Shown here: in pieces, positions 21,791 to 61,199 of the stretch
How positions within the stretch are numbered: position 1 is the first letter of the stretch
Layout of the letters: every line of letters begins with the position of its first letter
Source: a virus
Lineage: Duplodnaviria; Caudoviricetes
DNA: 64,000 bases
Virus record (IMG/VR): IMGVR_UViG_3300021387_000087
Strand: one strand, 5' to 3'
Program-made: the position numbers and the translations under genes
Notes under the pieces: model-generated
Database searches by the model: none
Seen by the model: only the letters and a program-made list of their open reading frames with translations
What the model was told of the DNA's origin: nothing

Positions 21791-21976
21791 ATGAGTGATG
21801 AATTAAAATGGTGTAAAAGCTTTCTTAGAGTTAATTATTTAATGTGTTTTCATCATCGTAAAAAAATACGGAAGAAAAATATGCATCGAAGAGATAAATT
21901 AGCACAGTATGCATTTAAAAGATGGGGGCATTTCCCAATGCCCCCTGAATGGTGTTTATCAAAGGAGGTGATCTAA
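21791..21976 (+). CDS. Small basic hypothetical protein
   Basis: 61-aa ORF between vWA and PurA-like genes. Confidence 0.55.
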   Translation: MSDELKWCKSFLRVNYLMCFHHRKKIRKKNMHRRDKLAQYAFKRWGHFPMPPEWCLSKEVI

Positions 21977-23163
21977 ATGCCTACACAAAATATTAAAATT
22001 GTTGTAGGTGCCTAGCACTTGCGGGTGATGAGGGCAAAGGTTTGGCTACAGATTATTTTGCCTCAAAAGCAGAAGGCTCTATTCTTGGAGTATTAACAAA
22101 TGGATCTTCTCAAAGAGCACATACAGTAGACACCTCTGACGGCAAGCACCATGTATTTAGTCATTTTAGTTCTGCTACATTTCGTGGGGCTGACACATAT
22201 ATTTCAAAATATTTTGTGGTCAACCCCATAAAATTTGCAGAAGAATATGTGCAGCTTCAGCGAGAATTTGGCATTACTCCTAAAGTATATATACATCCTG
22301 ATTGTAAGTTTATTACGCCTTGGGATATCCTTGCTAATTTAGCAGAATTAAAAAGAACAACAGCGTATAATAGCACAGGCTGTGGCTTCTGGAAAACTTT
22401 AGAAAGATATAAGAATGATGTGTGTGCTTTAAGTTTTAAAGATGCGTATAATTTAACTTCCTATAATGGATCAACTTTCAAAGATATAATACAGTATTAT
22501 CAAAAAGATTTGGATTTACTATCAACATCAATTAATAAGGCTGGTCTAGAGCGCCATTTTATTGATGATATGATTTTCTTATCTAATCATGTAATTTGGA
22601 TTAATGATGTAATATTAAATAGATATGATAATATCATCTTTGAAAATGGTCAGGGATTAATGATTGGACAGCAATATACTTCAGAAAAAGATTGGGAATA
22701 TTGCACACCATCTAATACTGGTGTTGAATATGCTGTTAATATGATTAAAAAAATAAAACCTTTTGAGTTTGAAAAAAAAGATATCGAGATATGTTATATA
22801 TCAAGAACTTATATGACAAGACATGGTGATGGCGATATTTTAAAGGCATGTGATAAACGAGATATTAATCCCATGATATATGATCAAACCAATGTTTTTA
22901 ATGCATGTCAAGGACATTTAAGATATGGCTTGTTACCAGTAAAAGAAATGATGGATAATATTTGTCTTGATATGGCGCTTGCGCTTGGTCTGCATTTTAC
23001 AGATTTTAATATGGACTATATAACATTTTCTTTAATGCTTACACATTGGAATGAATATTATGACAATAATGTCGAAGCATTGTTTGAAAGATTTGAGAAG
23101 GTATATATCTCAAATGGTAAAATCGCAGAGTCAGTAAAATTAAAAGAAGAGGTAATTAAATGA
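21977..23163 (+). CDS. Adenylosuccinate synthetase-like protein interrupted at codon 13 (TAG plus frame change); recoded gene or pseudogene
   Basis: AGGAGGTG RBS, ATG 21977 MPTQNIKIVVGA-TAG, then in another frame ALAGDEGKG; downstream AHTV, STGCG, FENGQG, TPSNTG, RTYMTRHGDG, QGHLRYG. Confidence 0.85.
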
Positions 23164-23516
23164 ACGAGGATAGACCTGTTTGGATAGTATATGTAGAAAA
23201 CTATAATCAAAATTGTATTGAAGAGTATAATATTTTTGATCATGATATTTTCTGGGATGATTGTTGTTTAGAATGGATTACGGTAGAACATTTTGCAACA
23301 GCACAAGAAGATTTTAATAATAGAATTATGCTTGAAGTCAATTATCATTTCGGCAATAAAAGTGCATGGGAGATTGAATTAACAACTCTATTTCCAAGAG
23401 ATAAATTTAAAAATAATAGAATTGATGTAAGTGACCAGATAAAATTAAACAAGAAACAATTTCTTAATTATTTATGGAATTGGTTCATGGAAGGGGAGTT
23501 AAAGAAGAATGGGTGA
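23160..23516 (+). CDS. Hypothetical protein
   Basis: 118-aa ORF, ATGA overlap. Confidence 0.7.
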   Translation: MNEDRPVWIVYVENYNQNCIEEYNIFDHDIFWDDCCLEWITVEHFATAQEDFNNRIMLEVNYHFGNKSAWEIELTTLFPRDKFKNNRIDVSDQIKLNKKQFLNYLWNWFMEGELKKNG

Positions 23517-45317: not shown

Positions 45318-48300
45318 TTATCTAAACCTAATTGAATTACCTTTCAAAGAATTATTGCCATTAAGTCTGCCGATAGAAAGTTCCTGAATATATTTTGTGA
45401 AATTCGGATCTCTCTGTGCTTCCTGCATAAATTCTTTATAATTAGTAACATTAGGAATATTAAATGTAATATTGTTAACAATATCTCCAGTTGTATTATT
45501 GGTATTCGTTATATTCTTATTAGGTCTCATATCCATATGGCTGGCTATAAAGTCAACAGGATTAGACATACCTTTCAAAAGATTAACCGCAGCATCGTGG
45601 GGCAGAACAGCAGTACCTTTATTTAAACGAGTATAGATTTTACCGTTCTTGTTAATAAATACTTCTTGCCCCTCTTCATCAACACGATACATTCCAGCAC
45701 GATTGACATTCTTGGTACCTTTTGCAAACCCACCTTGTATTTTTAAACCTTTAGATGCGGCTGTGCTAACTGCTTTATTGCTGTTATTTGAGGAACTTTT
45801 TAAAGCGTTGCCGCCAGCGGTTTTAGTTCTCTTTTTAATCTTACCATTTTTATCGGTCTCAAAAGTATATCCATCAACATTAAATTTACCAATTTGCAGT
45901 ATACCATTAGAATTGAAGTAATATTCATCGTTACCTATTTTTTGCCTACCAGTCAGCATCTTGCCACTATTTACACTAAAGTAACGTCTTCCTTCCTTCA
46001 TGTCTCTCCAACCAGTTTGTATAGTGCCAGATTTGAAGTAATATGTCGAACTTCCAGTTTTATATAAACCTGTATAATTACTTTTTAACGCGCCAGTCGT
46101 TTTATCTAACAGATAATAAGTATTACCTATTTTCTGTACGTCTTTAAGCATTGCACCATTTTTAGTACTCAAGTAGTACCACTTGCCGCCGACTTTCTGC
46201 CAGCCAGTCGTCATTGCTCCGCTGGAGTTCATATAGTACCAGTTGCCTCCAACCTTCTGCCAACCTGTTTGCTTCTTATCGTTCTTATAATAATAAGTTT
46301 TTCCACCTTCTGTGATAAAACCGTTTTTGGCTTTAGCTGTAGTTTTGGCAGGTGTCGTAGTTGATTTAGCCGCTGTACTACTTGATGCTGTAGACTTAGG
46401 AGTATAATCCGCAACTGTAGGCGTAGTAGGCACTGTCGGTGTAGGTGTTTTTGCATATGTGGTTGCAGATGTATTGTCTACAGAACCATTAGAAGTAGAT
46501 GTAGCAGTAACGAGTGCACCAACTTGTCCTGCGACATTAGCAACATTTGCAGAGAGATTCTGCACACCTGTGTATATATTATTTAAACTACCGCTAAGTG
46601 AATAATCAACAGAAGAAGCAACATCTTTCAAAGTAGATACGATATCAGCTCCAGACTGATTAACTCCAGAAACGACTTCGGTTAATAGAGCATCAATATT
46701 GTCTAATCGAGCATTTAAAACCTCTTCATATTTTTCTTGCATGGTAGATAATGCATCTTTAATATCAGAGATTCTCTGATCTTCCTGAGTGTCTTCTAAA
46801 TCTTTTTGTGCTTCTTTCAGTTGGTCTCGTAATTTCTGACGTTTCGTTGCACCCTCTTCAGAATCATCACCTTCCATACTCTTTAATTGCTTTTGTAAAG
46901 AATTAATTTCTTTTTGTTTTTTGGCAATACTTTCGGCATATTTTTGCTGTTCTTTTTCAGCATCTAAAGCATCTTCATATTTATCAATAAGGTCTTCCAT
47001 GACCTCTATTTGCTTTTTGATGCCTTTTTCTACAAGATCAGCGATAGCTTCTTTTTGAGAATGCGCATTAGAAATAGCATCTTGCTGTGCTTTTAACCAT
47101 TCGTTACGTTGGTCAATCAGTGTTTTATTATTAGGGTCTTTAGCGATATCTGCGTTCAGTCGCTTTACTGCTTCTCCATATTTTTTAGCTTGCTTGATAT
47201 AAATATCATATCGTTGAGCTTCTAATGCAAAAGCGGCTTTTCCTTTATCAGTTACTAATCCAGTATCTTTATCAAAGAGATCTATCTCATTAATAAGATC
47301 ACCTAAGAATTCCATCTCATCTGCAAGATTACTTAATTCATCTTGACCGCGTTCAAACTTATCCCACCGAAGTTGACGAATAGAATTAACTAACGATTGA
47401 ATTTCTTTATTAACCGCAATGACTTCATTATTAATGTTTTTGATTTGGATATACCATTTATACCATTCTTCGGAATATTGCTGAATTCTTCCAGCTTTTA
47501 CTGCGGCATTTAATTGCGCTTGTAATTCAGAGGCTTCACTATTCAGTGCTTTAATCTTATTTTGATTTTCAGTAATTTGACTAGAATAATAATTTTCTGC
47601 TACATCATATCCACGCTCAGTTACCAAATCTATTCTATTTTGAAGAGATGTGATATTAGCCCCGATATTATTGATCGTAGTTTCCCATTTGGTTTGAATT
47701 AATGTAAGTTGCTGTATAGTAAGTTGAGACAGTTTATTAATCTGGTCTTGTAACTTTTGTTGCATCTTAACATATTTTTCATACCAAGTCTGGTACGCCT
47801 GAATCTTTTTCCAAAGTCCTTCATCTCTAACATCATTAATAGTAAAATATTGTCCGCTGTTAACCGAATTTTGGATTCGCTTAATCCAAGTTTGACTTAG
47901 TGCGGTGCCTGAGGCTCCTTGAGAACCCTTTTTGTAACCCTCGTCACCACTCTTTAAGCCAGCTTCTTTTGCGGCAGCTGATGCTTTAGAAAGATAATTG
48001 TAAACATGGCTCTTACTGCTTAAAGAAGAATTGATTGCATTAATTTCTTTTTGTACAGTTGCTAAATCTTGAACCAAAGCACTGTTACGATTAGCAAAAG
48101 TGCTATAAGTTTTAGCCGCATTTGTGTCTAATTGAGAGATTAAAGCATCAATACGATTAAGTCTAATTTCAATAGCATCAAGTGTTTGAAGATTATCTTT
48201 AGAGCTTTTATTCGAAGAGGAATTACCAGAAGATTTCTTGCCACTCTTACCAGAAGATTTCTTACCACTGCCAGAAGATTTTTTGCTACTACTGGAAGAA

Positions 48301-51300
48301 GAGGTACTACCTTTGCGAGATTTTTTCGAAGCTTTTTTCAAAGTTCCACCTGCCGCATGAGACATGCCTGATAGCTGTCCATCCCATTTAGCAGTACCAG
48401 CAGCAAATGCTTTACCTTCTAATTCGTCTTCGTCAAAATCTTCGTCATCTACAGTGCCGTTTGCAAAAGCGCCACCAACCATTTTGCCATGAGAACCATT
48501 AACATATCCTTTTTTAAGGAGTGATTCAGATTGTTTATGATTAAAAATAATCGAGCCTTTAGGAAGATTAGCAAATGTAGGATCACCGCCATTAAGAATT
48601 TGCCAATGTCCGTCTGGAGTTACAATTACTTCACTACCTAATTCGTTTACAAGAGCACCTTTTTCTGCTTTAGGAAGACCCCAATCACCAGATAAAGTGC
48701 CACCCGCATAAGCATGACCTTTGGATATTACTGTACCTTGATTATGAGCGGAGCCTTGGAAACCTCCTCCATTATTAGGTTTTCCTTCAGTAGTATATTT
48801 GGTTTTTATGGTTATGGTCTTGTTAGATAATTTATCATAAACACTTGACTTCCAACTAGAAATTGTACTAAAACCAACCTGACTAGCGGTAATTCTAGCT
48901 GTTTTATCTTTGATAGAGCTTAATTTACTCTTTGAATCTGAAACTTTACTGCTTAATCTAGAATTGTCTGCTGAGATCTTAGGTGTGGTGACTTTTTTCC
49001 CTAAAGCGTTTAATTTATTGGTTACATCACTGCTTGTTTTGTTAAATTGAGCAGAATTACCATTAATAGTAACTTTTACTTTAGGATTCTTCTGAGATGT
49101 TAAATTATCAATCGAATCTTTAGCTTTGTCAACATCTTCTATTCCATCTACACTTAAACCAATAGAGACATTTGATCCGCTCATCGCTTTAAGATTTGAT
49201 ACTGTCTGATTGGCAGCATCTACCTGAGAAGTATCAGAAGTAACCGTGGTATTTATCTGCTCATCTTTAATAGTAGTTTCATGGTTTGTAGTTTGAACAC
49301 CCTGTTGTACACCTGCTTGATTAGCTGCATCTTGAGCGGTATTTTCGGCTTTTAAGACAAGAGGCATCTCTGTTTCTTTTGTTGCTTCCTCTTTGGTTTC
49401 TTCAATTACTTCATTCGCTTGAGATGCGTCTGCACTAAGATTCATTTGAAAATCTGCTTCACCATTGAAACCAAGAGTAGTAAGAGGTTTAAGATCTTCA
49501 GCAGAAGAAGCTAAATGAGCATGTACACCAACATCGGGTTCTGCTGAACCAATTGTATCTGCCACTTCTTGTTTAGCCGCTTCTTCGCTTGCAGGATCGA
49601 CACCGACACCAACAGTAATAAGATCTGCACCAATAGGAGCATGCCCATCTTTATAATAACCCTGAATATGAGAGTTGTCTAAAACAGGAGATATTTTTAT
49701 CTCAACTCCATTAGCATATTTATTTTCAATTTGTTTAATAATCTCTTCGGGGTCATTAGTCGGTGTAAAATCATATGCCATCTGTATTTTTTCAGGCAAC
49801 TGAGAAAATTGTTGGGCAAACTCTTGTATTTTTTTATCGTCTTTAATCGAAATATCAAATCCTAATTTACTGTTTTCTTTAATTGAATCTAATCTTTCGT
49901 TAAGATCACCTGTTATTTCTTTAGCGTAATCTAAAGTATCAACGTTAATTTCCATATCAGGTTCAACATGTTTACCATTTATGATATCTAAGCGCTCAAT
50001 CATTGATTGCAATAAATCGTCTAAAGCACTAGCAGTTTCAGTACTAATATCAGGATTAGCCTTTAAATCTTGGATTTCTTTAATTTTAGATTCTAATTCT
50101 TCAGCGCTTAAAGTCGCTACATCAAAATCAAAAAGATTTGCATGTGCGAGTGCTGGATCAGTGCCTGTCTTTTTTAAATCAATTAATCTTTGTTTTGCCG
50201 CTTCAGCCTGCTCGGTTACTTTATCTAACTGTTGCATTTGACCATCGGTGAAGAAATGAACTCTAGAACCAGTAGCATTTAATTCATTCATTAAAGAAAG
50301 AATTAAATCCTTAGATACGCCATAATGTTCTGCAACAGCATCAAGATTTTTATCAGTCATTGTCATGACAGTTTCGCCAGCTGCATTTGTGGAAATTTCA
50401 GCATACTCTTCAGGCCAAGACATTATTTCATCAATCCATAAATTAGCTCCCTGTGTAGGATCTTCTGTAAAGAATTTTTGCATTGTGTCAGCGCCTTGTT
50501 CATAAGCCGCTTCTACTTCCTTAACTGACGCTAATGCTAAATCTTTATAGGAGAATAACTGAGCAATACGCCTGAATCCTTCTTCACCAGTTTCACCACT
50601 TTCAAGATAGGCATCGCCCTCTTTAAAGATTTGATCTCTAAACAATTTGTAATTAGTACTATAATCTGCGCTTCCGTGTCCATTTTGATATTTGCTTAAA
50701 GCCGATGTAGCTCCACTATAAGCTGACCATAGCATATCTAATTGTTCAATTTCTTCTCTGTATGCATCAGCGACCGCTCCAGAAGAAGCTGTAAACTTCT
50801 CCATTAATTCTTGACGCTTCTCATAAAATTCTGCATGACGCATTGATTCTTCTTGAGACTGCAACGCTCTTAATGCATCGGCATTAACCATAATGCCGCC
50901 CGCTGTTTCTTCAAATAAAGAAGCATAATCATAATTGGGCAAATCTTTATAAGCATCAGCAATTGCTTTAACTTCGCTTGCAATTTCATGCCCTTGATCA
51001 TCTTGCGTCTTAGTAAATGTCAAGAATCCTTGTCCCTTAGAAAGGGTAGAAGATAAGTTAGAAGTTTCTTCAATCCATCCAGAAGCTTTTTGAGCGAATT
51101 TATCAAATGACTCGCCCGCCTCATCTAGAGAAGTGGTAGCTATATAACCTAACCTACCCAATAATTCTGCGACAGCATTGATTGACTCTTGCGAAGACTC
51201 TGCGGTAATACCAAATGCGTCAGCTATTGTTTGGATATCGCTTGCTACTTCAGGGGGAAGATTAGATAAGTTACTTAAATATCCTTCAATATCTGTAACA

Positions 51301-54300
51301 TCATATTTAAAATCATCAAACAATCCACTTAAAGCATCTACACTGCCAGTCTTTTGTAAAGCTTCCATTACATTGTTTACATCAAGACCAGCCTCTTTAG
51401 CGGCTTTAGACAATTGTTCCATCCCTAAGTAGATAGCGCCCTTTTTGCCTGAAAAATGCATCATTTTACCAACTGCATTGGCGGTATAATCTCCAATATC
51501 ATTAACAGCCGCTATGATGCCTTTGCCCCCTTTTTCAGGTTTGTCAAGTTCAAGTATTTGACCAAGATCAATTTTCCCTGTTGTTTTATCTGTGGCTTCG
51601 TTTATAATATTTTGTATATAGTCATGAACGGTATCAGCATCTAAAAATTCGCCCTTCCCATTTTTAGAATTCTTCATAATAGGAGTAAAGGCTATATCAA
51701 TATTATTAAATTTTTCCGATGTTCCAAATACAGTATCTATACTGCCTTTTTCGGGATTATAGTCCCAAGATTTTAATGCGTCTGCATATTGCTTCTTGGT
51801 TTTTTTATCCCATTTTATTACGGGACGTTCATTCATATTAACGTTGCCGAATTGGGCAGTTGGATATAATCCTTGTAATGGCTCAACTCCGAAACCTTTC
51901 ATTCCCCATTCATATGCTTTTTGTTGTTCATTTAAAAGATTTTCAACGGCATCACGAAGGGTATCAGGAATTTCCTTAGCTGATTTTTTATTTTCTTTTG
52001 GAGTGCCTAAAACGGACTCAACAGCATTCTTTACTTTAGAATCATTAAATTTCTTCTTGATATTATAGGCTTCTATCTGAGTTTGATCAACTTTATCAAA
52101 AATGTCTTCAAATGGACGATTAAATTTTTGATCGCCCATTGCATCGACCACTTCATTGGCAGCCTCTTTTACTTTGTCAAAGGCAGTTTTGGTCTTTTCA
52201 ATTTGGGAAGTATCGCCAGAAACTAGTGCAGCATTATAATTATCTACTGCCTCTTGTGCCTCAACAAGGACTTCGCCAGCGGAAAGATTGTCTTCACCAA
52301 AAGTGCCATTCTTAGCAAAAATGCTTTGTTCAAGAAAAGAGTTGTAATCGTCTTTGTATTTAGAAATTATTTCATCGTTCTCTTGGATGGAAGCGGTTAA
52401 TGAATTCATTAATCCTTCAAAGCCACTGCCGTCCCAATCCTCGCCCATTTCTTCTTTTAATTCCAAAAGACGATTATACAATACGTCCATAGACTCTTCA
52501 GCTTCTAATGCATTACCTGTAAAACGAATACCAATTTCACCAGCATAATCATATTTTCCCCAATTGCCCGTTAAATCTTTTGTTAAAGATTCTATGTCTT
52601 TATCTGACAAAAAGCCACCTGAAGACATATTATATACTTGTCTGTCTTTGGTAAGTTTTTCTTCTGCATTTTCATAATCTCCAGCATTATGCGCAAGATT
52701 AGAACGCGCTTCCTCTGCTTTAATATTACGAAGCTTGTCTAACTGCTCATCTAATTTTCCATTAACAAGATCAACTCCATCAGCACTATGTCCGTATTCA
52801 TCAGTAATTTGTTTTTGTAAATCATATAATTGTTTTTTAATATTTGCTTGTTCTTCTTCGGATAAATTAGTATTTTCTAATTGTTTATGTAAATCTTGAT
52901 ATTGTTGTGTATAGTTATTGAGAGAGTCCTTATTCTCATTCCAAGTATTAGTTAATTCATGTGCTTTATCAATGTGATCTTGTTGTTGTTGATCGAGATA
53001 GTTGAATAATCCGTTTATAATAGTAATAGCTGCAGGAATTGCTATAAGCCAGAACAGGGGACTTGAGGCTAGTCCAGCTAATCCAGTTGCGCCCGCAGCA
53101 GTACCAGCGCTACCCGCACCAGTTGCGACTCCATCAAGACCTTGACTCATACCACCAGATAGTTTCGAGCCAGTTTGAGCATCTTCCGCTTCTTTGTTTG
53201 CAATAGTAGCTAGTGTGTTTTCCTCTGTCTTTTTTGTATTATCTGCAGTTGCGACAGAATCAGTGGTTTCACCAACGGCACCTTCTATATGTGCTGAATT
53301 GTTAGCATTTTCAGCTGTAGTTTCAGCGACTTCAGCAGCCGCTTTCTCTCCAGAAACAGATATACTTTCTTCTTTTAAAGCATTGCCTTCTTCTAGAACA
53401 TCGTTCATTTCTTGTTGGGCTTCTTTTTGTTCTTTTAATGCTTGTATTTCAGGGTTTTCTTTAGCTTTCGCTCGATTTTCTCTTTGATTTTGAATTTGTG
53501 CCCAGCCTTTAAAGATTGATTTATTTTCATCGTCAGATTTGTTACTATCAAAAATTGTTCTGAAAACATCACCTAAAGACTTACTAGTCGCTTTCGCTTC
53601 GTCTAATCGGCTAACAAATTTAACAAGCCAACTATCTGCGGTCATGAGACCTCTAATAATTGTTCCACCATAAAGAAGAGCAAAAGCAGACTGGAGTCCA
53701 CCAACCTCATTTATGACGTTAAGAATAGTAGTACCTAAGTCAATGAACATATTGATGATATCGCGATTAGCGGCATTTGCCCAGAGTTCTTGCCAAGCGT
53801 TTTGAAGTTTTGCAAGGTGCCCAGAGATACTATCTAAATATTTCTGATTTTCTTTCATTGCAGAATTTGCAGCTTTAGTGGAAGAATCTTCGTAGACAGA
53901 TTGAAGAGTTTTAGGGTTCTGAAGAATCGAACTGGCAATAGATGCACGGTTTTTACCTGCAATTGATTCAAGCAACAAGTTCTGACGGTTATCACCAGAT
54001 TTAAGGTCAGCTTGACGGATTTCATCCCAGATTTGGGAGAGACCTAGCATGATTTCATACGTTGATTTGTAGCGACCTAACTCATCTTGAATATCAAAAC
54101 CTTGGTAATTATTAGAAGCTACTTTGGTTGCGTTCATAATCAATTCACGCATCTTAGATTGCGACATAATCATGTCGGACGTATCTTCGCCCATTTCTTC
54201 CAATTCTTCTGCCGCTTCTTTAGTGCCTGTTAAACGAAGCGCGATTGTACGAATACCCTTGCCCGTCTTGGAAGCGTCCTGCGTAATAAGGTTGCCTGCC

Positions 54301-57300
54301 GTTGTCAAAGCAATAGCTTCATCAAGATCATTTCCTGCTGTTGTAAGTGTAGCTGCTCCATCTTGAAGAGCAGTTGCTAATTCATCAGTTGCTATTGCAT
54401 AATTATTACCGATAAGATTCAATCTATCTACGATGTCCATCTTATCGATACCTTTTTCTGCGTCTTCATATGCGGCGCTCATAGCAACCAATGCAGTTGT
54501 TGCGTCATTAATATTGTCAAATTCAGAGACATTAAACAGTACATTTGCAGTTTGCGCTGATTGAGAGGCTTCCTGTAAAGTTTCGCCTAAACGCATCCAG
54601 TCGGCAGTACTCGTTTGTAATTGCGCGGCTGTAGTACCGATATCATTCGCTGTATCAAATGTACTCTTTTGATATTCTCTTAAACTACTCAGACTTTCAT
54701 CTGAAACTTTTTGCATCTCTGTTAATGCATCATCAAGTTCATGGATGATTCCAATACCCTGTTTAAATACGCCAATTACTTCATAAAACGAAACAAAGGA
54801 CAGGAGATAAGTGCCTAAGGATTTAAAACGCTCGGTAAGCATCGAAATAAAAGTGCCGCCTGTATTCCCAGCTTCCTTTTCTGCATTCGCAATATCTCTT
54901 AATTGCTGAACGACATTTGATGCATCAAAACTGTTAATTCCAGTTTGTAATTGACCGATTAATCCGCTCATTTCTGTTCTAGCACTAGATGATATAGCTG
55001 GATTATCGTTTAAAAATTTTTGATAAATTGCTCGTTGTTTTTGTAATTCACTAGGATTAACAATAGAAAAATCTTTTGCGCCATTTTTTATACGATCTAA
55101 GGACTCTTCAAATCCTTTTAAATTAGTTACATATTCTTTTATAATATCAGGATTACCAAGAATTTCTTCAAGTGACATGCCCTGCATTTTCTCAACAATC
55201 TTTTGAAAATTACCAAAAGATTCAGATGCGGAAACAATGTCTTTTTTAAATACCTTAAAAGCCGCATCGCTAAGAGAACCTTGAGCAAACACTTTGTTTA
55301 TTCCTTCAAAATTAGATTGTTTAATAATATTTGTAAATAAATCTCCCCCAAGGATTTTCGTCAAATCATCTTTTGTGCTTTTCGCCTCATGAATAATCTG
55401 TGAGTGAAATTTTTCAAACCCTAACGTTACTTTATCTAAAGCAACCTGTTGATTTAAAACCGCTTTATCGGGCGCGTTTTCACTTAATATACCCGTAAGA
55501 AAATCTGGTCTTTGTATATTGGTTGCCTTTGATATGCGATCTGTATATGTTTTTATGCTTTTATAAATGGCATCTATAGAAGTTGTAGTTGCTTTAGGAT
55601 TACTAATTTCGCCAAATAATTTAGTAATAGCAGTCCCATATCCCGTAAAACTTGCAGGTAAACTTGCCAATAGATTTTTCGACTCTGTAATTGAATCTTT
55701 GGCGGTTTTAAAAGTATTAGTAACCGATTCAATGTCCTGTTTTACCTGTTCCGTCACAGAATTTGTATTAGGATCAAATACTTTGAGAGGCTCATCAGTT
55801 AATGTTTGTTTTATTTGTCTAATTCGTTCTAATGCCTGTTCAACATTTATTAATTGAGCTTCTAAAGCGGGATCAATGACAACTAATTTTTCACTATCTG
55901 CTTTAATCTTTTCTAAATCTTTTTCTAATTTATTTAAATCTGCTATAGGTCTTTTAGTAGCCGATTCAGCTTTGGCTAACGCTTCTTTCTCAGCTTGATC
56001 TTTAGCTGCTTGGGCAGCCGTCTTTTGTGCTTCAACTTGTGCTTTATATGCTTTATCACCAGCAGCGGCACCACTTACATTCTGAGATAACATCTCGGTT
56101 AGTTGCAAGACCTCTTTTAATGCAGAAGCATCCATGAAATTAAAGGTACCGTTTTTCATAGAATCAACGATTTCTTTTAATCTCTCCAATGCCATAGTTG
56201 CACTATCTACATTCTCAACATAACCCCTGATTTCTTCTCCTGGATTATTTATTAATAATTGCATTTTCTGTGTATCATCATTAGGATTATATTGATATGC
56301 TAAATTCAAGTCTTCTAATGCACTTTTTTGTTTTTCATATTCAGCAATAGTCTTAGCAACATAAGAGGCTTGAGCATTCTCTATTGCTTTTAAAGATTCA
56401 ACTTGCTGAGAAGCTGCTTTTGTAAAACTATCACCTAATTGAGCACCAAAGATATTATCTTCAGGTTTAAGAGATGCTTGAGACAGTATTCTTTGTTTTG
56501 TTTCTTCAACATGTTTGGCAGCAGCATCTATTTCTTGTACTGATTTAGCGTCCAAAGCACCTTTTACATCTGTGCTATAACCTTTATATTGCTTACTTAA
56601 AGATTCATCAGCGGCTTTTTGTTGTGCTTTTTCTTCTTCTTTTTTAGCCTTTTCTGCCGCTTTTATTTGCTCTAGTTCAATTCGATTTTTTTGTTTTGTT
56701 TGTTCATCTAATAATTTTTTGTTTTGTGCTTCAGCCTCTTCTGTTCTTTGTTTTCTTTCAGCCTCTAATTGTTTTGCAAGATTATTTTTTTCAGTTTCTA
56801 ACGCTTTCTTTTCAGCCTCTAATGTTTTCTTTTCTTCTGCATTCGCTTTTTGTTGATCGTTAGCCTTTTTGTTCTTATACTTGTCAACTTCAGACTGTAA
56901 TTGCTTTCTAGCCTGTGTTTCTTCATCTAACAGTTTTTTAGTTTTAGCCAACTCCTCATTAGTAGCTTTAGTCTGCTCTTTAGCGACTTCAAGCTGTTCT
57001 GTAAGACCTTTAAACTGCTCATCAAATCCTTGAGAAAATTGAGCTGTATCAATTTGTTGCTTGAGTTCAAAAATCTTTTGAGTAGCCGCTTCTATCTTTT
57101 GAGGAATTTGTTCAAATACTTCTTTTAAACCTGTCAAATTAGAACCGTCAGAAAGAGATGAGAGAGTCGAATTTAAAATATTAAGTTGACCAATAATTTC
57201 TTGAATCTTTCCTGAAATGGCATCTAATACAGCGCTATTATCACCACCAAATATTTGTTTGATTAATTCGGTCGGAGAATTGTCAAGAGCAAAATTCTTT

Positions 57301-60300
57301 GCGCTATCTATAATTGCATCTGGGGCTTGCGTTATTTTAGGAAGAATAGATTGTAAATCAGCACCAGCTTCAATAGCATATTGTTTTAAATCATCTATTC
57401 TCCTTTTGTATGCTTCCATTTTTTCTTCGTTGGTAGATTTTTTATCGTCTAAAACATCTTGCGTAGACCAAAGAGTTTTAAAATAATTATCTCCACCATT
57501 GCGTTTCAGCATACCCTCCCAATTTTGTCCTAAATTATTAGAAAAATATTTTTCCAAAGATTCTGCTTGTGATCGTAATTCTTTTAAAGCCTGCCTATCT
57601 TTCGCAGCTTGTTGCTGGATAGCATTACCTGTGTTTGAAATATTAAAATTAAACCCTAAATCTTTTTGAGAGATCGTTTGTAAACTATCAGCAATAGTTT
57701 GAATCTGTGATAACAAATTTGGTAATCCAGAATTGTCATCAACTGCTCCAATAGCAGATTGCACACTTGCCAAAGATGCAACAAGTGCTATAACTTCTTC
57801 ATTTAATGTTTCAAACTGACTAATTAACGGATTAATATCTAATCCATTTTGTAAATCAACTTTAAGCCCACCCTCAGCTTGAACAGCAGACATTACTTTA
57901 CTCACTTGTTGACCTGCTTCAACAATTTGTCCCATTGCTTCGGCTATTTTTGTCAATTGTTCTGTAGTGCCAGCAGAGTCAGAACTTTTTCCCATTTGGT
58001 TAATTGTATTAGATACTTGGGTTAATAAAGTTTGAATTTTTTGAGTAGTATTAATAGTATTTTGTAATTCTTCAGGATCAAAACCAAATTTTGCTTTTAA
58101 TGCGGCTTTAGATTCTTCTTCAATACTTTTAGCACTCGCTTCTGCTGATGCTTTAACATCTTTGTTTGCATCAACAAATGCTTGTTTGGCTTCAGCGGCA
58201 CTTATAAATTTAAAAGTAAGATTATCAGCGTCATCCCCTTCTTTTTGCATTCCCTTGATATTGTCCGTCTTCACAGGTGTCTCTGGGTGAGTAGGGGGTA
58301 CCTCTGGTTTCGGTGCTGGTGTAGGATTCGCTGGTGTGCTAGGTGGCTGCGCATTATTGGCATTTTGACGAGAAGTCGCCAACCTATCTTGCGCATCAGC
58401 ATCCGCATTAGCCGCATCTGCTTCTTCTCGCATAGCTGTAGCCGCACCTTGTGCTGTTTCAGCGGCCTGTTGCCCCACTTGATTTCCTTGCTGTTGTGCT
58501 TGAGATAACCCTTCAACAGCACCTGTCGCACGAGTTGCTGATTCGTCTAAAGATTCAGTTGGTATTTCTCCATTTTGATTTGTTAAGTCGTTTAAGGCAT
58601 TTTGAGTTTGCTGTATTCGTCCCTCCCAATATGATATTTTTTGTTCTAAGGAATCAGCAAACTCTTGAAAACTGTCTATGGTAATAACATCACTGTCTTC
58701 AGCCCATTTTGCAATTAGCGCGTTTTGATGATCAAATAAAGATCCGGGGTCAAAATTGTCCTTATCACTAAGAATTTTATTAACTTCATCACGGGCTTCC
58801 TTTAATTTTTCTTGGATATTTTTATAAGTACTAATATATTTTTCTAATTGCTCTTCCGTTGCGTGTTCGTCCGTCTCTCCACTGCCCGCCTCTTCATTTG
58901 GAATTTCTATTGATGTTGGAGACATCTGCCTAATTGTCTCATTAATTTCTTTTACTTTTTCTTGTCTTGCTTCAATTTGTTCTTTTAAATTATCTAATTT
59001 TTCCTGAGCATCTTCACCATAGCTTTCCAGAGCGCCAAATGAAGCACCCGTTTCACCTGATGATTCCCAATATTGTGCTAAATCTCTAATAACATCATTA
59101 TCAGAGTCATACATATGTTCTAAAACAATTTCAGCTTCAGACCTAAATTTAGTCGCTGATTCACCCTCATTTATTGATTCAACAATATTTTGAATGGCAG
59201 AATTCAGTTCTTGCTGTTCTTGGTATTGTCTTTCAAGTTCTTCAAGCTCTTCTTCTAATGCTTTTCTTTGTTGTTCTAATTGTCCAACATCAACTATTTC
59301 TTGAGTATCAGGCGTTGATTCTGGCGTTACCTTTGCTGGTTTTGATTCTTCTGCTTGGATGTTCGCAATTTGTTCATTTATTGCTCTTTTTTGCGATTCA
59401 GTCTCAGCAATTGTGTTTAGGAGATTTTGTAGTTCAGTAGAATTTTCAATCCATCTTTGTTTTAGATTGGTTATATGCTCTCGGAGACCATCAGTATTAA
59501 ACTCTTTTTCGCCACCAAATTCTCTTGCTAATCTTTCTGCCAACGACTCTTTTTTATCCCATGTTTTAAGTTTATCTAAGTTAGAGGGCATATTTTTGCC
59601 ATTATTACCCCCTATCATATTTTGGTAAGCCTTATAATATTCAATCCATGCTAAATCTTTATTTGATTCATCGGCCTCATCATACGCTTGCTGTTTTTCC
59701 CATAATTGTTTTTTTGATGCTGATACGCCCTTTTGTTCATAATTTCCATTAATTACATCAACAATCGCTGTATTTTCTTTTTCTAATTCTTCTTTTGCCC
59801 TTTGTAATTCATCAGCTTGTTTTTCTACTTCTTGACGCTGTTTGGTTAAATGATCAACATCTCCCTCTAGCTTATCAGTAAAAACAGACGGATCTACCAT
59901 TCCTTCAATATTTTCAGCGCTAGAATCAACGCCAGTTTTTCCATATGTGTTTAATAAGTTTTTAAAGGCTTGAGAAATTTGTGCTTTTCTTCTAGCTTCA
60001 TCATCTCTTTGTTTTTTTTCTTCTGAACGATTATCAGCCGTTTTTTCTGCAAGAGACTCTAACCAATTTGTAACAGTATCATCATATCTTAAATCAGCAG
60101 GTTCTTCGTCAGGTGCAATTATATTAAATAACTGATCCCAGTCAAGCGTATTAGCTTTATCATACTCTTGAATGGTTGATTCAATCTGTTTAGAACGCTC
60201 TCCTTGAACCATTTCACGAAGACGGGATAAAAGAGCTGGGATGTCTTTTTGTTCATATTGACTCGCATTTAACTTCTCTCGTATATCATCTCTTGTTTTA

Positions 60301-61199
60301 CTTGCTTTCTCTATTTTTGAACGTAAATCACCAATAATATTAGTAACATCTTCTTGTGTATATTTACCACCTTTTTCCGAACTTGTGATTGCAGAAATAA
60401 TCTCGTCAAGACGATTTTCTGCGGTCGCATATGCTTTCTGTTGTTCCTCGTTTTTAGGATTCTGCTTTGCAATATATTTTAAACGTTCAGTTAAAGCAGC
60501 CGCTCTTCGCAAATCTGATTTGGTAAAAGAATCAGTTTTCCCACCCGCTTTTAGCCACAGGTCTTCAACTTGCTGTGATGATGCTGTACCGCCTATCATA
60601 TAAGGCATAACATCTTTATAATCTGTTGAAATAGACACATTGCTCATCATTTGGACAATATCTTTTATTGTTTCATCAGCATGCTGACCTAACGCATTTC
60701 GATATTGTGCCTTGAATTTTTGGGTGTCTCTTTTCCCCATACCAAAAGATTCGATAGCCTCATCAAAAATTGAGGCTCCTAAAATTTGTTGAGCAATCTC
60801 CTCCCCAGGTTTAATTTTCTCCCATTTCGAGGCACCTGTTTTAGAAAATTCTGAGCTATAATAATATGGGATCTCTTCTATGCCCCTTCTAAAACCCTCA
60901 ATAATTTGTACTTTAACGCTTTCCGCTAAATCTCCATCGGCTAAAACTTGAGTTAAAGGAGGAATTACATTACTCCAATCCAAATCTTTAAATTTACTAT
61001 TAGACAATAATTCATTGATTTTGCCCAATTCACTTTCAGCCTGTTCTGCTAATTTTTTATCGTTAAAACCTACATCCAATTCATAGTCTTTAAGATTGCC
61101 TTTTAGTCCATTTTTAAGTTGACTAGCAATTTGTTTATAATTATCAATTAACTCAACTGCTAATGATATCTTACCAGTCGCAACACCCTGTCCAGCCAT
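45318..61199 (-). CDS. Giant tape measure protein (5293 aa) with C-terminal cell-wall-binding repeats
   Basis: TP901-type core (LDDALTEMQKV...IGNNYAI...GIRTIALRL), TM segments, long coiled coils, FAKGT...VDEEGQE motif. Confidence 0.92.
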   Translation of the reverse strand: MAGQGVATGKISLAVELIDNYKQIASQLKNGLKGNLKDYELDVGFNDKKLAEQAESELGKINELLSNSKFKDLDWSNVIPPLTQVLADGDLAESVKVQIIEGFRRGIEEIPYYYSSEFSKTGASKWEKIKPGEEIAQQILGASIFDEAIESFGMGKRDTQKFKAQYRNALGQHADETIKDIVQMMSNVSISTDYKDVMPYMIGGTASSQQVEDLWLKAGGKTDSFTKSDLRRAAALTERLKYIAKQNPKNEEQQKAYATAENRLDEIISAITSSEKGGKYTQEDVTNIIGDLRSKIEKASKTRDDIREKLNASQYEQKDIPALLSRLREMVQGERSKQIESTIQEYDKANTLDWDQLFNIIAPDEEPADLRYDDTVTNWLESLAEKTADNRSEEKKQRDDEARRKAQISQAFKNLLNTYGKTGVDSSAENIEGMVDPSVFTDKLEGDVDHLTKQRQEVEKQADELQRAKEELEKENTAIVDVINGNYEQKGVSASKKQLWEKQQAYDEADESNKDLAWIEYYKAYQNMIGGNNGKNMPSNLDKLKTWDKKESLAERLAREFGGEKEFNTDGLREHITNLKQRWIENSTELQNLLNTIAETESQKRAINEQIANIQAEESKPAKVTPESTPDTQEIVDVGQLEQQRKALEEELEELERQYQEQQELNSAIQNIVESINEGESATKFRSEAEIVLEHMYDSDNDVIRDLAQYWESSGETGASFGALESYGEDAQEKLDNLKEQIEARQEKVKEINETIRQMSPTSIEIPNEEAGSGETDEHATEEQLEKYISTYKNIQEKLKEARDEVNKILSDKDNFDPGSLFDHQNALIAKWAEDSDVITIDSFQEFADSLEQKISYWEGRIQQTQNALNDLTNQNGEIPTESLDESATRATGAVEGLSQAQQQGNQVGQQAAETAQGAATAMREEADAANADADAQDRLATSRQNANNAQPPSTPANPTPAPKPEVPPTHPETPVKTDNIKGMQKEGDDADNLTFKFISAAEAKQAFVDANKDVKASAEASAKSIEEESKAALKAKFGFDPEELQNTINTTQKIQTLLTQVSNTINQMGKSSDSAGTTEQLTKIAEAMGQIVEAGQQVSKVMSAVQAEGGLKVDLQNGLDINPLISQFETLNEEVIALVASLASVQSAIGAVDDNSGLPNLLSQIQTIADSLQTISQKDLGFNFNISNTGNAIQQQAAKDRQALKELRSQAESLEKYFSNNLGQNWEGMLKRNGGDNYFKTLWSTQDVLDDKKSTNEEKMEAYKRRIDDLKQYAIEAGADLQSILPKITQAPDAIIDSAKNFALDNSPTELIKQIFGGDNSAVLDAISGKIQEIIGQLNILNSTLSSLSDGSNLTGLKEVFEQIPQKIEAATQKIFELKQQIDTAQFSQGFDEQFKGLTEQLEVAKEQTKATNEELAKTKKLLDEETQARKQLQSEVDKYKNKKANDQQKANAEEKKTLEAEKKALETEKNNLAKQLEAERKQRTEEAEAQNKKLLDEQTKQKNRIELEQIKAAEKAKKEEEKAQQKAADESLSKQYKGYSTDVKGALDAKSVQEIDAAAKHVEETKQRILSQASLKPEDNIFGAQLGDSFTKAASQQVESLKAIENAQASYVAKTIAEYEKQKSALEDLNLAYQYNPNDDTQKMQLLINNPGEEIRGYVENVDSATMALERLKEIVDSMKNGTFNFMDASALKEVLQLTEMLSQNVSGAAAGDKAYKAQVEAQKTAAQAAKDQAEKEALAKAESATKRPIADLNKLEKDLEKIKADSEKLVVIDPALEAQLINVEQALERIRQIKQTLTDEPLKVFDPNTNSVTEQVKQDIESVTNTFKTAKDSITESKNLLASLPASFTGYGTAITKLFGEISNPKATTTSIDAIYKSIKTYTDRISKATNIQRPDFLTGILSENAPDKAVLNQQVALDKVTLGFEKFHSQIIHEAKSTKDDLTKILGGDLFTNIIKQSNFEGINKVFAQGSLSDAAFKVFKKDIVSASESFGNFQKIVEKMQGMSLEEILGNPDIIKEYVTNLKGFEESLDRIKNGAKDFSIVNPSELQKQRAIYQKFLNDNPAISSSARTEMSGLIGQLQTGINSFDASNVVQQLRDIANAEKEAGNTGGTFISMLTERFKSLGTYLLSFVSFYEVIGVFKQGIGIIHELDDALTEMQKVSDESLSSLREYQKSTFDTANDIGTTAAQLQTSTADWMRLGETLQEASQSAQTANVLFNVSEFDNINDATTALVAMSAAYEDAEKGIDKMDIVDRLNLIGNNYAIATDELATALQDGAATLTTAGNDLDEAIALTTAGNLITQDASKTGKGIRTIALRLTGTKEAAEELEEMGEDTSDMIMSQSKMRELIMNATKVASNNYQGFDIQDELGRYKSTYEIMLGLSQIWDEIRQADLKSGDNRQNLLLESIAGKNRASIASSILQNPKTLQSVYEDSSTKAANSAMKENQKYLDSISGHLAKLQNAWQELWANAANRDIINMFIDLGTTILNVINEVGGLQSAFALLYGGTIIRGLMTADSWLVKFVSRLDEAKATSKSLGDVFRTIFDSNKSDDENKSIFKGWAQIQNQRENRAKAKENPEIQALKEQKEAQQEMNDVLEEGNALKEESISVSGEKAAAEVAETTAENANNSAHIEGAVGETTDSVATADNTKKTEENTLATIANKEAEDAQTGSKLSGGMSQGLDGVATGAGSAGTAAGATGLAGLASSPLFWLIAIPAAITIINGLFNYLDQQQQDHIDKAHELTNTWNENKDSLNNYTQQYQDLHKQLENTNLSEEEQANIKKQLYDLQKQITDEYGHSADGVDLVNGKLDEQLDKLRNIKAEEARSNLAHNAGDYENAEEKLTKDRQVYNMSSGGFLSDKDIESLTKDLTGNWGKYDYAGEIGIRFTGNALEAEESMDVLYNRLLELKEEMGEDWDGSGFEGLMNSLTASIQENDEIISKYKDDYNSFLEQSIFAKNGTFGEDNLSAGEVLVEAQEAVDNYNAALVSGDTSQIEKTKTAFDKVKEAANEVVDAMGDQKFNRPFEDIFDKVDQTQIEAYNIKKKFNDSKVKNAVESVLGTPKENKKSAKEIPDTLRDAVENLLNEQQKAYEWGMKGFGVEPLQGLYPTAQFGNVNMNERPVIKWDKKTKKQYADALKSWDYNPEKGSIDTVFGTSEKFNNIDIAFTPIMKNSKNGKGEFLDADTVHDYIQNIINEATDKTTGKIDLGQILELDKPEKGGKGIIAAVNDIGDYTANAVGKMMHFSGKKGAIYLGMEQLSKAAKEAGLDVNNVMEALQKTGSVDALSGLFDDFKYDVTDIEGYLSNLSNLPPEVASDIQTIADAFGITAESSQESINAVAELLGRLGYIATTSLDEAGESFDKFAQKASGWIEETSNLSSTLSKGQGFLTFTKTQDDQGHEIASEVKAIADAYKDLPNYDYASLFEETAGGIMVNADALRALQSQEESMRHAEFYEKRQELMEKFTASSGAVADAYREEIEQLDMLWSAYSGATSALSKYQNGHGSADYSTNYKLFRDQIFKEGDAYLESGETGEEGFRRIAQLFSYKDLALASVKEVEAAYEQGADTMQKFFTEDPTQGANLWIDEIMSWPEEYAEISTNAAGETVMTMTDKNLDAVAEHYGVSKDLILSLMNELNATGSRVHFFTDGQMQQLDKVTEQAEAAKQRLIDLKKTGTDPALAHANLFDFDVATLSAEELESKIKEIQDLKANPDISTETASALDDLLQSMIERLDIINGKHVEPDMEINVDTLDYAKEITGDLNERLDSIKENSKLGFDISIKDDKKIQEFAQQFSQLPEKIQMAYDFTPTNDPEEIIKQIENKYANGVEIKISPVLDNSHIQGYYKDGHAPIGADLITVGVGVDPASEEAAKQEVADTIGSAEPDVGVHAHLASSAEDLKPLTTLGFNGEADFQMNLSADASQANEVIEETKEEATKETEMPLVLKAENTAQDAANQAGVQQGVQTTNHETTIKDEQINTTVTSDTSQVDAANQTVSNLKAMSGSNVSIGLSVDGIEDVDKAKDSIDNLTSQKNPKVKVTINGNSAQFNKTSSDVTNKLNALGKKVTTPKISADNSRLSSKVSDSKSKLSSIKDKTARITASQVGFSTISSWKSSVYDKLSNKTITIKTKYTTEGKPNNGGGFQGSAHNQGTVISKGHAYAGGTLSGDWGLPKAEKGALVNELGSEVIVTPDGHWQILNGGDPTFANLPKGSIIFNHKQSESLLKKGYVNGSHGKMVGGAFANGTVDDEDFDEDELEGKAFAAGTAKWDGQLSGMSHAAGGTLKKASKKSRKGSTSSSSSSKKSSGSGKKSSGKSGKKSSGNSSSNKSSKDNLQTLDAIEIRLNRIDALISQLDTNAAKTYSTFANRNSALVQDLATVQKEINAINSSLSSKSHVYNYLSKASAAAKEAGLKSGDEGYKKGSQGASGTALSQTWIKRIQNSVNSGQYFTINDVRDEGLWKKIQAYQTWYEKYVKMQQKLQDQINKLSQLTIQQLTLIQTKWETTINNIGANITSLQNRIDLVTERGYDVAENYYSSQITENQNKIKALNSEASELQAQLNAAVKAGRIQQYSEEWYKWYIQIKNINNEVIAVNKEIQSLVNSIRQLRWDKFERGQDELSNLADEMEFLGDLINEIDLFDKDTGLVTDKGKAAFALEAQRYDIYIKQAKKYGEAVKRLNADIAKDPNNKTLIDQRNEWLKAQQDAISNAHSQKEAIADLVEKGIKKQIEVMEDLIDKYEDALDAEKEQQKYAESIAKKQKEINSLQKQLKSMEGDDSEEGATKRQKLRDQLKEAQKDLEDTQEDQRISDIKDALSTMQEKYEEVLNARLDNIDALLTEVVSGVNQSGADIVSTLKDVASSVDYSLSGSLNNIYTGVQNLSANVANVAGQVGALVTATSTSNGSVDNTSATTYAKTPTPTVPTTPTVADYTPKSTASSSTAAKSTTTPAKTTAKAKNGFITEGGKTYYYKNDKKQTGWQKVGGNWYYMNSSGAMTTGWQKVGGKWYYLSTKNGAMLKDVQKIGNTYYLLDKTTGALKSNYTGLYKTGSSTYYFKSGTIQTGWRDMKEGRRYFSVNSGKMLTGRQKIGNDEYYFNSNGILQIGKFNVDGYTFETDKNGKIKKRTKTAGGNALKSSSNNSNKAVSTAASKGLKIQGGFAKGTKNVNRAGMYRVDEEGQEVFINKNGKIYTRLNKGTAVLPHDAAVNLLKGMSNPVDFIASHMDMRPNKNITNTNNTTGDIVNNITFNIPNVTNYKEFMQEAQRDPNFTKYIQELSIGRLNGNNSLKGNSIRFR

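Follow-up and report, generated by a model that had tools for sequence, protein, structure and literature searches.

A gene for a PurA/PurZ-like protein is interrupted near its 5' end on the plus strand of IMGVR_UViG_3300021387_000087, a Caudoviricetes record of which a stretch of 64,000 nucleotides (nt; hereafter, the window) was analyzed. The Shine-Dalgarno (SD) region (AAAGGAGGTGA, 21961-21971), read from the sequence, has GGAGG at 21964-21968 and serves the ATG at 21977. From this ATG, a first coding segment of 12 codons (21977-22012) encodes MPTQNIKIVVGA and ends with GCC (22010-22012), which is immediately followed by an in-frame TAG stop (22013-22015). An earlier sequence-only reading of the site had described the strong ribosome-binding site and the short peptide ahead of TAG, and both were confirmed in the sequence. 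Of the Ala codons in the window, GCC is used least (10%), and TAG terminates 3 of its 70 open frames of at least 100 codons.

The rest of the gene lies in the +2 (equivalent to -1) frame, which stays open from 21997 until its stop (23161-23163), reads ...ALAGDEGKGLATDYF... and has an intact body. The second coding segment (22018-23163) has 381 codons and a stop, and the P-loop GDEGKG occupies 22024-22041. ATG, GTG and TTG are all absent from this frame upstream of TTG 22042, itself 3' of the P-loop, so the start assigned there omits the P-loop, as the earlier reading had pointed out. The second segment matched PF00709 (E = 9e-18, 64.6 bits against a cut-off of 27) and phrog_1211 ('PurZ-type', E = 6e-35). 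The family profile matched solved PurA chains at 1e-19, no chain named PurZ being among them, and a single-sequence search of solved structures with the PurA-like protein gave no match. On the PF00709 match and the GDEGKG P-loop, the predicted product belongs to the adenylosuccinate synthetase family (PurA or phage PurZ), and its substrate would be inosine monophosphate (IMP) or deoxyguanosine monophosphate (dGMP).

DNA comparison with the uninterrupted relatives L003-L006 and L012-L014, which read GGN GCA CTT, revealed exactly five more bases in the window, GGT GCC TA/GCA CTT. The extra bases, GCCTA at 22010-22014, could equally be placed as CCTAG or CTAGC and are missing from uninterrupted homologs. 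The nearest database proteins (98-70% identity) have no interruption. Their sequence, IKI[IV]VGALAGDEGKG, is that of the window product after removal of exactly 5 nt, the correction that had been proposed for bringing the P-loop back into frame. The canonical G-x-x-x-GDEGKG spacing is kept in 120 database homologs and 150 further loci inspected. At the other edge of the gap stands GCA (Ala, 22015-22017), 5 nt 3' of GCC, whose first base is the G of TAG and whose next codon is CTT at 22018. GCC and GCA, hereafter the candidate take-off and landing codons, are the sole matching pair, and GCA is the first GCN triplet 3' of GCC; the matched Ala codons of the earlier reading were thereby upheld.

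Recurrence of the gap and selection on its carriers

Relatives were sampled at 483 IMG/VR loci encoding them, 9 of which were interrupted. Pattern scans of IMG/VR for YTAG beside the P-loop returned these 9 known interrupted loci only, the other 26 matches being canonical G-L-G codons. The gap of the window, type A (GGT GCC TA/GCA CTT, 5 nt; the slash precedes the landing codon), is also present in L001, L002, L011, L017, L018, L020 and L030, and was identical base for base in at least eight independent contigs from different samples and assemblers (JGI, ENA, NCBI and Logan). This identity excludes the assembly error that had been listed as an alternative, and we regard the reality of the gap as virtually certain.

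About 15 more contigs carry related gaps of other types. Type B (GGT TCT TAG/TCC AAT TAY, 6 nt) was found in L007, L023, L028, L044 and L117, and type C (GGC TCG TTAA/TCC AAT TAT, with TTAG in L051; 7 nt) in L027, L032-36 and L049-51. Type E (GGA GCT TA/GCC AAT TTC, 5 nt) occurs in L202, of a lineage 42-45% identical to its nearest relatives, and type D (GGA GCC TAG GTT GGC TTT, 6 nt) in a single contig, L101. All types share one position, after the Gly codon ending the first strand and before the three codons preceding GDEGKG. Rumen and gut phages share a family of gaps of 5, 6 or 7 nt at this codon of the gene, to which the site in the window belongs.

The take-off and landing codons of types A, B, C and E encode the same amino acid (Ala/Ala, Ser/Ser, Ser/Ser and Ala/Ala, respectively) and agree at their first two positions. 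The landing codon is the nearest triplet 3' of take-off to begin with these two bases, and joining the pair gives the exact canonical protein with G-x-x-x-GDEGKG spacing. The A-site codon at take-off is TAG in types A, B, D and E and TTA in type C. With gaps of +5, +6 and +7, all three frame relations are present, as expected for downstream re-pairing of a peptidyl-tRNA and not for frameshifting or readthrough.

The close relatives of the window are not uniformly continuous. Some are (98% identity), and the 90% identity cluster of the window protein, spread over dozens of contigs, combines uninterrupted calls of 392-396 amino acids (aa) with truncated calls of 373 and 315 aa, roughly half of the cluster carrying the gap. 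The truncated 373-aa call of the window itself occurs on 3 contigs of up to 156 kb. The alignment of homologs that had been suggested as a check was thus borne out for the gap, which recurs in relatives, and failed for the insert hairpin, which is not conserved outside type A.

Several candidates were rejected. A motif scan for further hop sites in the window gave 16 matches and no other hop-like site, AAG TAG AAG at 10508 being an ordinary gene junction. P0017, which starts MGDEGKG, is an uninterrupted gene with a late start call, and P0042 has a true 5' deletion.

The SD region of the window belongs to a block, extending from the ribosome-binding site to the gap, that is 95-100% identical among type A carriers with flanks 65-90% identical. 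Its first coding segment has only one variable site (CAA/CAG) among the eight type A carriers. L011 shares this block alone, the DNA upstream being unrelated. In L018, the DNA 5' of the module is 75-86% identical and the module itself 97%, a contrast that speaks for constraint and not recency alone.

Downstream open reading frames (ORFs) are full-length (353-381 codons) in all distinct carriers (20 or more), and variation in the P-loop segment is mostly synonymous among them. The ratio of non-synonymous to synonymous substitution rates (dN/dS) downstream, which had been named as a further check, was low, at 0.10-0.30 for the second segment among type A carriers and 0.08-0.13 within type C, where dS reaches 0.40. 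In a tree of gene bodies, type C forms a long-stemmed clade of carriers only (support 100/100), with no uninterrupted member among the sequences examined. Its protein cluster has 90 members in a collection of 5.8 billion proteins; all 15 members listed are truncated calls (266-346 aa), and the nearest uninterrupted protein among the matches listed is 72% identical. At least 155 substitutions in type C created no stop (P ~3e-4 if neutral), and the sole indel is in frame. With 80% of sites non-synonymous, the non-synonymous and synonymous differences (nd/sd) stood at 41/66 (p = 4e-21). In the stretch that begins with the landing codon and runs through GDEGKGLATDYF, type C varies synonymously only, in a frame without its own start codon, and therefore its ribosomes can arrive at the P-loop only by starting at the upstream ATG and crossing the gap. 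The type C lineage is under strong purifying selection, P-loop included. Expression across the gap appears highly probable for the interrupted genes of type C and, with less assurance, probable for those of the window's type. From selection on both segments, we infer one polypeptide spanning the gap.

Proposed hop and competing explanations

The reading that best fits these comparisons, and one we hold to be somewhat favored overall, is a maintained ribosomal hop (+5 in the window), a short variant of T4 gene 60-type bypassing. The gene would most likely encode one full-length PurA/PurZ-like enzyme through this short translational bypass. Ribosomes would start at ATG 21977, make MPTQNIKIVVGA and pause while peptidyl-tRNA(Ala) is paired to the rare GCC and TAG occupies the A site. 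A forward slip of the mRNA by 5 nt would then let the same tRNA re-pair with GCA, and decoding would resume at CTT to give ...IVVGALAGDEGKG..., so that the product would hold the canonical-length junction peptide IVVGALAGDEGK. The sequence-only reading had proposed a programmed hop or a -1 frameshift. Comparative data favor the GCC-to-GCA hop, whereas the -1 shift lacks both a slippery site and re-pairing: ATT GTT GTA GGT GCC TAG contains no X XXY YYZ heptamer, and UGC, the triplet at -1, offers tRNA(Ala) no re-pairing.

A conserved 5' hairpin (21979-22009) pairs GCCUACA(CAA) with (UUG)UGUAGGU, its 3' arm ending at the Gly codon before take-off. In every carrier type, codons 2-4 pair with the last codons before take-off (CCUACA with UGUAGG in types A-C, CCUAUGAC with GUUAUAGG in type D, and CCUAUGA with UCAUAGG in type E), and the 3' arm holds an SD-like AGGUG in the window and AGGAG in types D and E. 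The minimum free energy of this hairpin was -8.1 to -11.7 kcal/mol in carrier types A-E, compared with -2.4 +/- 2.35 kcal/mol in 120 distinct non-carrier segments, about 3% of which reach -8 kcal/mol. In an alignment of ten carriers, 93.8% of cells were paired, against 26-51% in slid controls, and two pairs showed compensatory change on both sides.

This hairpin may supply the forward push. Its 3' arm would lie in the E site and exit channel and re-zip as the mRNA moves, each nucleotide forward letting one more of about 7 lower pairs form, a number that fits gaps of 5-7 nt. The AGGUG next to the take-off codon, too near the P site as in prfB, could be an alternative or added driver. Take-off occurs at codon 11-13, with a nascent chain of 11-13 residues, which rules out a long nascent-peptide signal; the N-terminal peptides are alike across carriers (MPT..., KPM..., LPM...) because the CCU of the hairpin dictates them.

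The local hairpin that the sequence-only reading had placed at 22004-22022 (UGUAGGUGC-CUA-GCACUUGCG, 22003-22023) does fold, at -10.7 kcal/mol in the window and -7.5 kcal/mol in L001. As a gene 60-like signature it did not hold, being specific to type A (types B, C and E give -0.8 to -1.7 kcal/mol). Its 71-nt context was not unusual against shuffles (z = -0.4), and its origin lies in the GTGCAC palindrome present in the uninterrupted gene. Because it draws on bases that the conserved 5' hairpin also needs, the two compete and are mutually exclusive. In a third possible pairing, the G-L-A codons, about 20 nt 3', would bind the gap together with the landing codon; it is stronger in carriers than in most non-carriers, although the separation is not clean, and is no more than suggestive.

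Several observations weigh against a maintained hop. Type D has an in-frame TAG without a cognate landing codon, and type C has no in-frame stop after take-off, its TTA being the commonest Leu codon (42%, with the window as proxy). The codon pairs are synonymous rather than identical, and reading of both by one tRNA depends on the host tRNA set. The 5' hairpin is kept in the uninterrupted L008, a close relative of type B, so that it may predate the gap or outlast its loss, and, as it overlaps the start codon, it could control initiation instead. The carrier lineages number just three to five, perhaps not all independent. Type A carriers do not group apart from near-identical non-carriers (98% identity) in the tree but are interleaved with them, the nearest relative of the window being the uninterrupted L014 (97%), and their intact ORFs and low dN/dS could thus be inherited by recombination. 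Since recombination with uninterrupted genes could supply selected sequence, dN/dS in type A is weaker evidence than in type C. In L031 (1440-1530; ERZ919342 scaffold_9348), the start and the entire P-loop region are deleted, the vWA-like stop being followed by ...GLATDYF with 342 codons still open, which suggests that loss of the gene may be tolerated.

Such a persisting ORF, and the interleaving, which extends to type B, would also suit a non-functional allele. Here the 5-nt gap would inactivate the gene and have spread by a selfish or recombining 5' cassette, or because loss is neutral or useful, and the ORF would be intact as the invasions are recent. Recent spread predicts a module near-identical across diverged backgrounds, as observed, and the degenerate landing site of type D lies beside an HNH endonuclease gene. 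We nonetheless consider this explanation unlikely. It has to accommodate a carriers-only type C lineage in which dN/dS is about 0.1, no stop has arisen in at least 155 substitutions and the P-loop segment varies synonymously only, as well as full-length downstream ORFs in all 20 or more distinct carriers, a hop-compatible codon layout in four gap types of different sequence, and the 97% module of L018 beside upstream DNA of 75-86%. The recent one-off inactivation that had been offered earlier is unlikely as well.

Each type could instead have a recoding event of its own: type A would combine TAG readthrough with a -1 slip, type B would need TAG readthrough only, and type C would shift by +1 at UUA-A. 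The predicted enzymes of all types would then have two additional residues ahead of the P-loop (G-A-X-A-L-A-GDEGKG and so on), and type D, having TAG and no landing codon, fits readthrough better than a hop. This requires three unrelated mechanisms at one codon, GGU GCC UAG offers neither a slippery heptamer nor -1 re-pairing, and the G-x-x-x-GDEGKG spacing is constant in the 120 database homologs and 150 loci; we judge this account quite improbable. Nor was any CUA suppressor tRNA found in the window, whose one tRNA is Leu(CAA), or in a complete 149-kb type B phage, which encodes 14 ordinary tRNAs, including tRNA-Ser(UGA), and one odd one. Reassignment of TAG (code 15) was rejected because code 11 already gives 94% ORF coverage of the window and leaves the neighbors in L101 intact, and because the frame would not be restored anyway.

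In the type B phage (IMGVR_UViG_3300021426_000003), L236:1786-1901 is a tRNA-like gene with an insertion of about 42-55 nt between the D arm and anticodon stem. Its anticodon is probably GGU (Thr); it was missed by ARAGORN and scored 42 bits in Rfam.

Removal of the extra bases from the RNA, by editing or by cutting and ligation, would make the mature mRNA continuous. The points in its favor are circumstantial, namely that the gap lies in or beside predicted hairpins and that an RNA ligase is encoded nearby on type C contigs. The gap edges vary by type, whereas the codon match, which is relevant to a tRNA alone, is conserved, and, to our knowledge, no phage has been shown to excise 5-7 nt from an mRNA; we give this explanation very little chance. 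A sequencing or assembly artefact in this contig, whose sole support is the general expectation that a 5-nt indel seen in one metagenome contig may be an error, has a negligible probability given the identical gap in at least eight JGI, ENA, NCBI and Logan contigs and the related gaps in about 15 more.

Cassette features and neighboring genes

Upstream of the interrupted gene, and downstream of a vWA-like gene, the window has a 61-aa basic Cys/His-rich ORF (21791-21976, plus strand). Type A carriers with this ORF have 192-193 nt between the vWA-like stop and the PurA-like ATG, and 5 of 6 non-carriers of the lineage have 0 nt there. Seven of the eight type A carriers have the ORF, and so does the uninterrupted L004. 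Searches of Pfam and PHROG matched it to no family. A nuclease role was rejected, as it has no Pfam or PHROG match, is unlike the HNH protein of L197 and occurs in the non-carrier L004; at a guess, it may be a cassette remnant.

The type D contig (IMGVR_UViG_3300001528_000259) encodes a 254-aa HNH endonuclease at L197:3313-4077 (phrog_374, E = 1e-40; weak HNH_3 and AP2 in Pfam). Its gene sits between the vWA-like and the interrupted PurA-like gene, with its stop inside the first codons of the latter, and its 3' end overlaps the start of the interrupted gene and the 5' arm of the hairpin. No HNH endonuclease adjoins the type A, B, C or E copies. By analogy with known elements, the gap probably entered with a replacement 5' gene end as a mobile cassette, and for the copy in the window the link to a nuclease is only an analogy.

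At the type D site on the same contig (L101:1179-1260), GTTGGC is the reverse complement of GCCAAC. We conjecture that type D is a 6-nt inversion of a GCC TAG GCC AAC stop-hop.

At the type C loci, a terminator-like hairpin (GAATGGGTGAG...CTCGCCCATTC; L032:1330-1400) lies between the vWA-like gene and the interrupted gene, and L033 has lost the end of the vWA-like gene to a deletion at this position. In the window, the PurA-like gene is followed by a 118-aa gene without a family match (23160-23516). All compared relatives instead have an unrelated 122-aa gene with about 30% DNA identity to it, a difference that marks a local gene replacement. Three genes 3' of the PurA-like gene, L012 (2455-3717) and its relatives in the equivalent position encode a 420-aa metallo-beta-lactamase-fold protein with a precomputed match to the anti-Pycsar Apyc1 family, and a dUTPase/DCD-like gene follows further on. 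The longest open frame in the window, of about 5300 codons, lies on the minus strand at 45318-61199.

Relation to known bypassing and significance

Bypassing is known to be stimulated by a 5' stem-loop or SD element, and synthetic stop-hops have been described (PMC5009743, PMC10732093, 10.1101/2024.12.09.627546, 10.1101/2022.08.31.505936). Natural cases in the searchable literature are very few, namely T4 gene 60 and its homologs, yeast mitochondrial inserts and a phiHau3 candidate. On comparative evidence, the sites described here would be a new, very short variant of known bypassing.

In T4, the MobA element of gene 60 carries a replacement piece of the target gene together with the gap, near-identical genomes lack it, and it often loses the nuclease and keeps the gap (10.1101/2022.08.31.505936); our comparison drew also on PMC5462505 and 10.1101/2024.12.09.627546. 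As in gene 60, take-off is at a codon preceding UAG, a cognate landing codon lies beyond it, and decoding is predicted to resume for one polypeptide, with a 5' stem-loop and an SD-like element as putative stimulators. The gap also lies in a conserved part of an enzyme gene, has near-identical gapless relatives and probably arrives with a replacement gene piece, and in one lineage (L197) an HNH endonuclease adjoins it. The re-zipping proposed above matches the exit-side pairing model put forward for gene 60 (10.1101/2024.12.09.627546). Unlike the 50-nt gap with identical codons in the topoisomerase gene of T4, the gaps here are of 5-7 nt, in a PurA/PurZ-like gene and with synonymous codons. They also differ in having no cassette sequence homology, take-off at codon 11-13, no endonuclease beside the copy in the window and a bypass that is predicted from sequence.

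By the account given in PMC5009743, the synthetic stop-hops of Weiss et al. (1987) in E. coli used artificial constructs with matched codons around a stop and gave low-level +5 and +6 hops. The window has the +5 form, and TCT TAG TCC of type B is the 9-nt-for-one-residue arrangement; unlike the constructs, the present sites are natural, conserved and accompanied by a hairpin. A 2016 review held that shorter natural counterparts had long been expected and that no natural in-frame stop-hop was known (PMC5009743).

In the Streptomyces phage phiHau3, 10-nt UUA inserts in the terminase gene have a proposed 5' stem-loop and SD-like stimulators, and bypass was supported by mass spectrometry in E. coli (PMC10732093). 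Our sites resemble these in having a short gap in a phage gene with a 5' stem-loop and SD-like elements, and type C also has UUA in the A site. They differ in that UUA is rare and regulated in Streptomyces while TTA here is the commonest Leu codon, and in gap lengths and genes. The +1 frameshift of prfB (RF2) has a stop in the A site and an SD-like element a few nucleotides upstream that pushes the ribosome forward. The present sites likewise combine an A-site stop with a nearby upstream SD-like element, but prfB shifts by 1 nt onto an overlapping codon, whereas the re-pairing codon here is non-overlapping, at +5 to +7. TAG is read by release factor 1 (RF1) only, so that a link to release-factor activity is possible.

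We infer the hop, its driver, its efficiency and its purpose from these comparisons. The gap may serve nuclease immunity or as an expression throttle, or may be merely a tolerated insertion. A wider picture, which we put forward tentatively and rate as doubtful when taken as a whole, is that a PurA/PurZ-like gene of rumen and gut phages is decoded by natural ribosomal hops of 5-7 nt, which form a family and are driven by hairpin re-zipping at the mRNA exit. The gap would confer self-immunity to a homing endonuclease targeting P-loop DNA or act as an RF1-sensitive throttle, and the sites would be a minimal, independently evolved counterpart of T4 gene 60/MobA and part of a wider unannotated class of short gaps in phage genes.

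The locus provides a compact natural set of variants differing in gap length, codon pair and hairpin, in which the rules of short hops are testable with about 100 nt. Gene callers yield many N-truncated database entries (373, 315 and 342 aa) without the P-loop, and what is probably a working enzyme thereby looks dead. If the link to a homing endonuclease is true, selfish elements can enter invariant catalytic motifs without killing the gene. If the hop is true, these phages would possess a rare natural short translational bypass.

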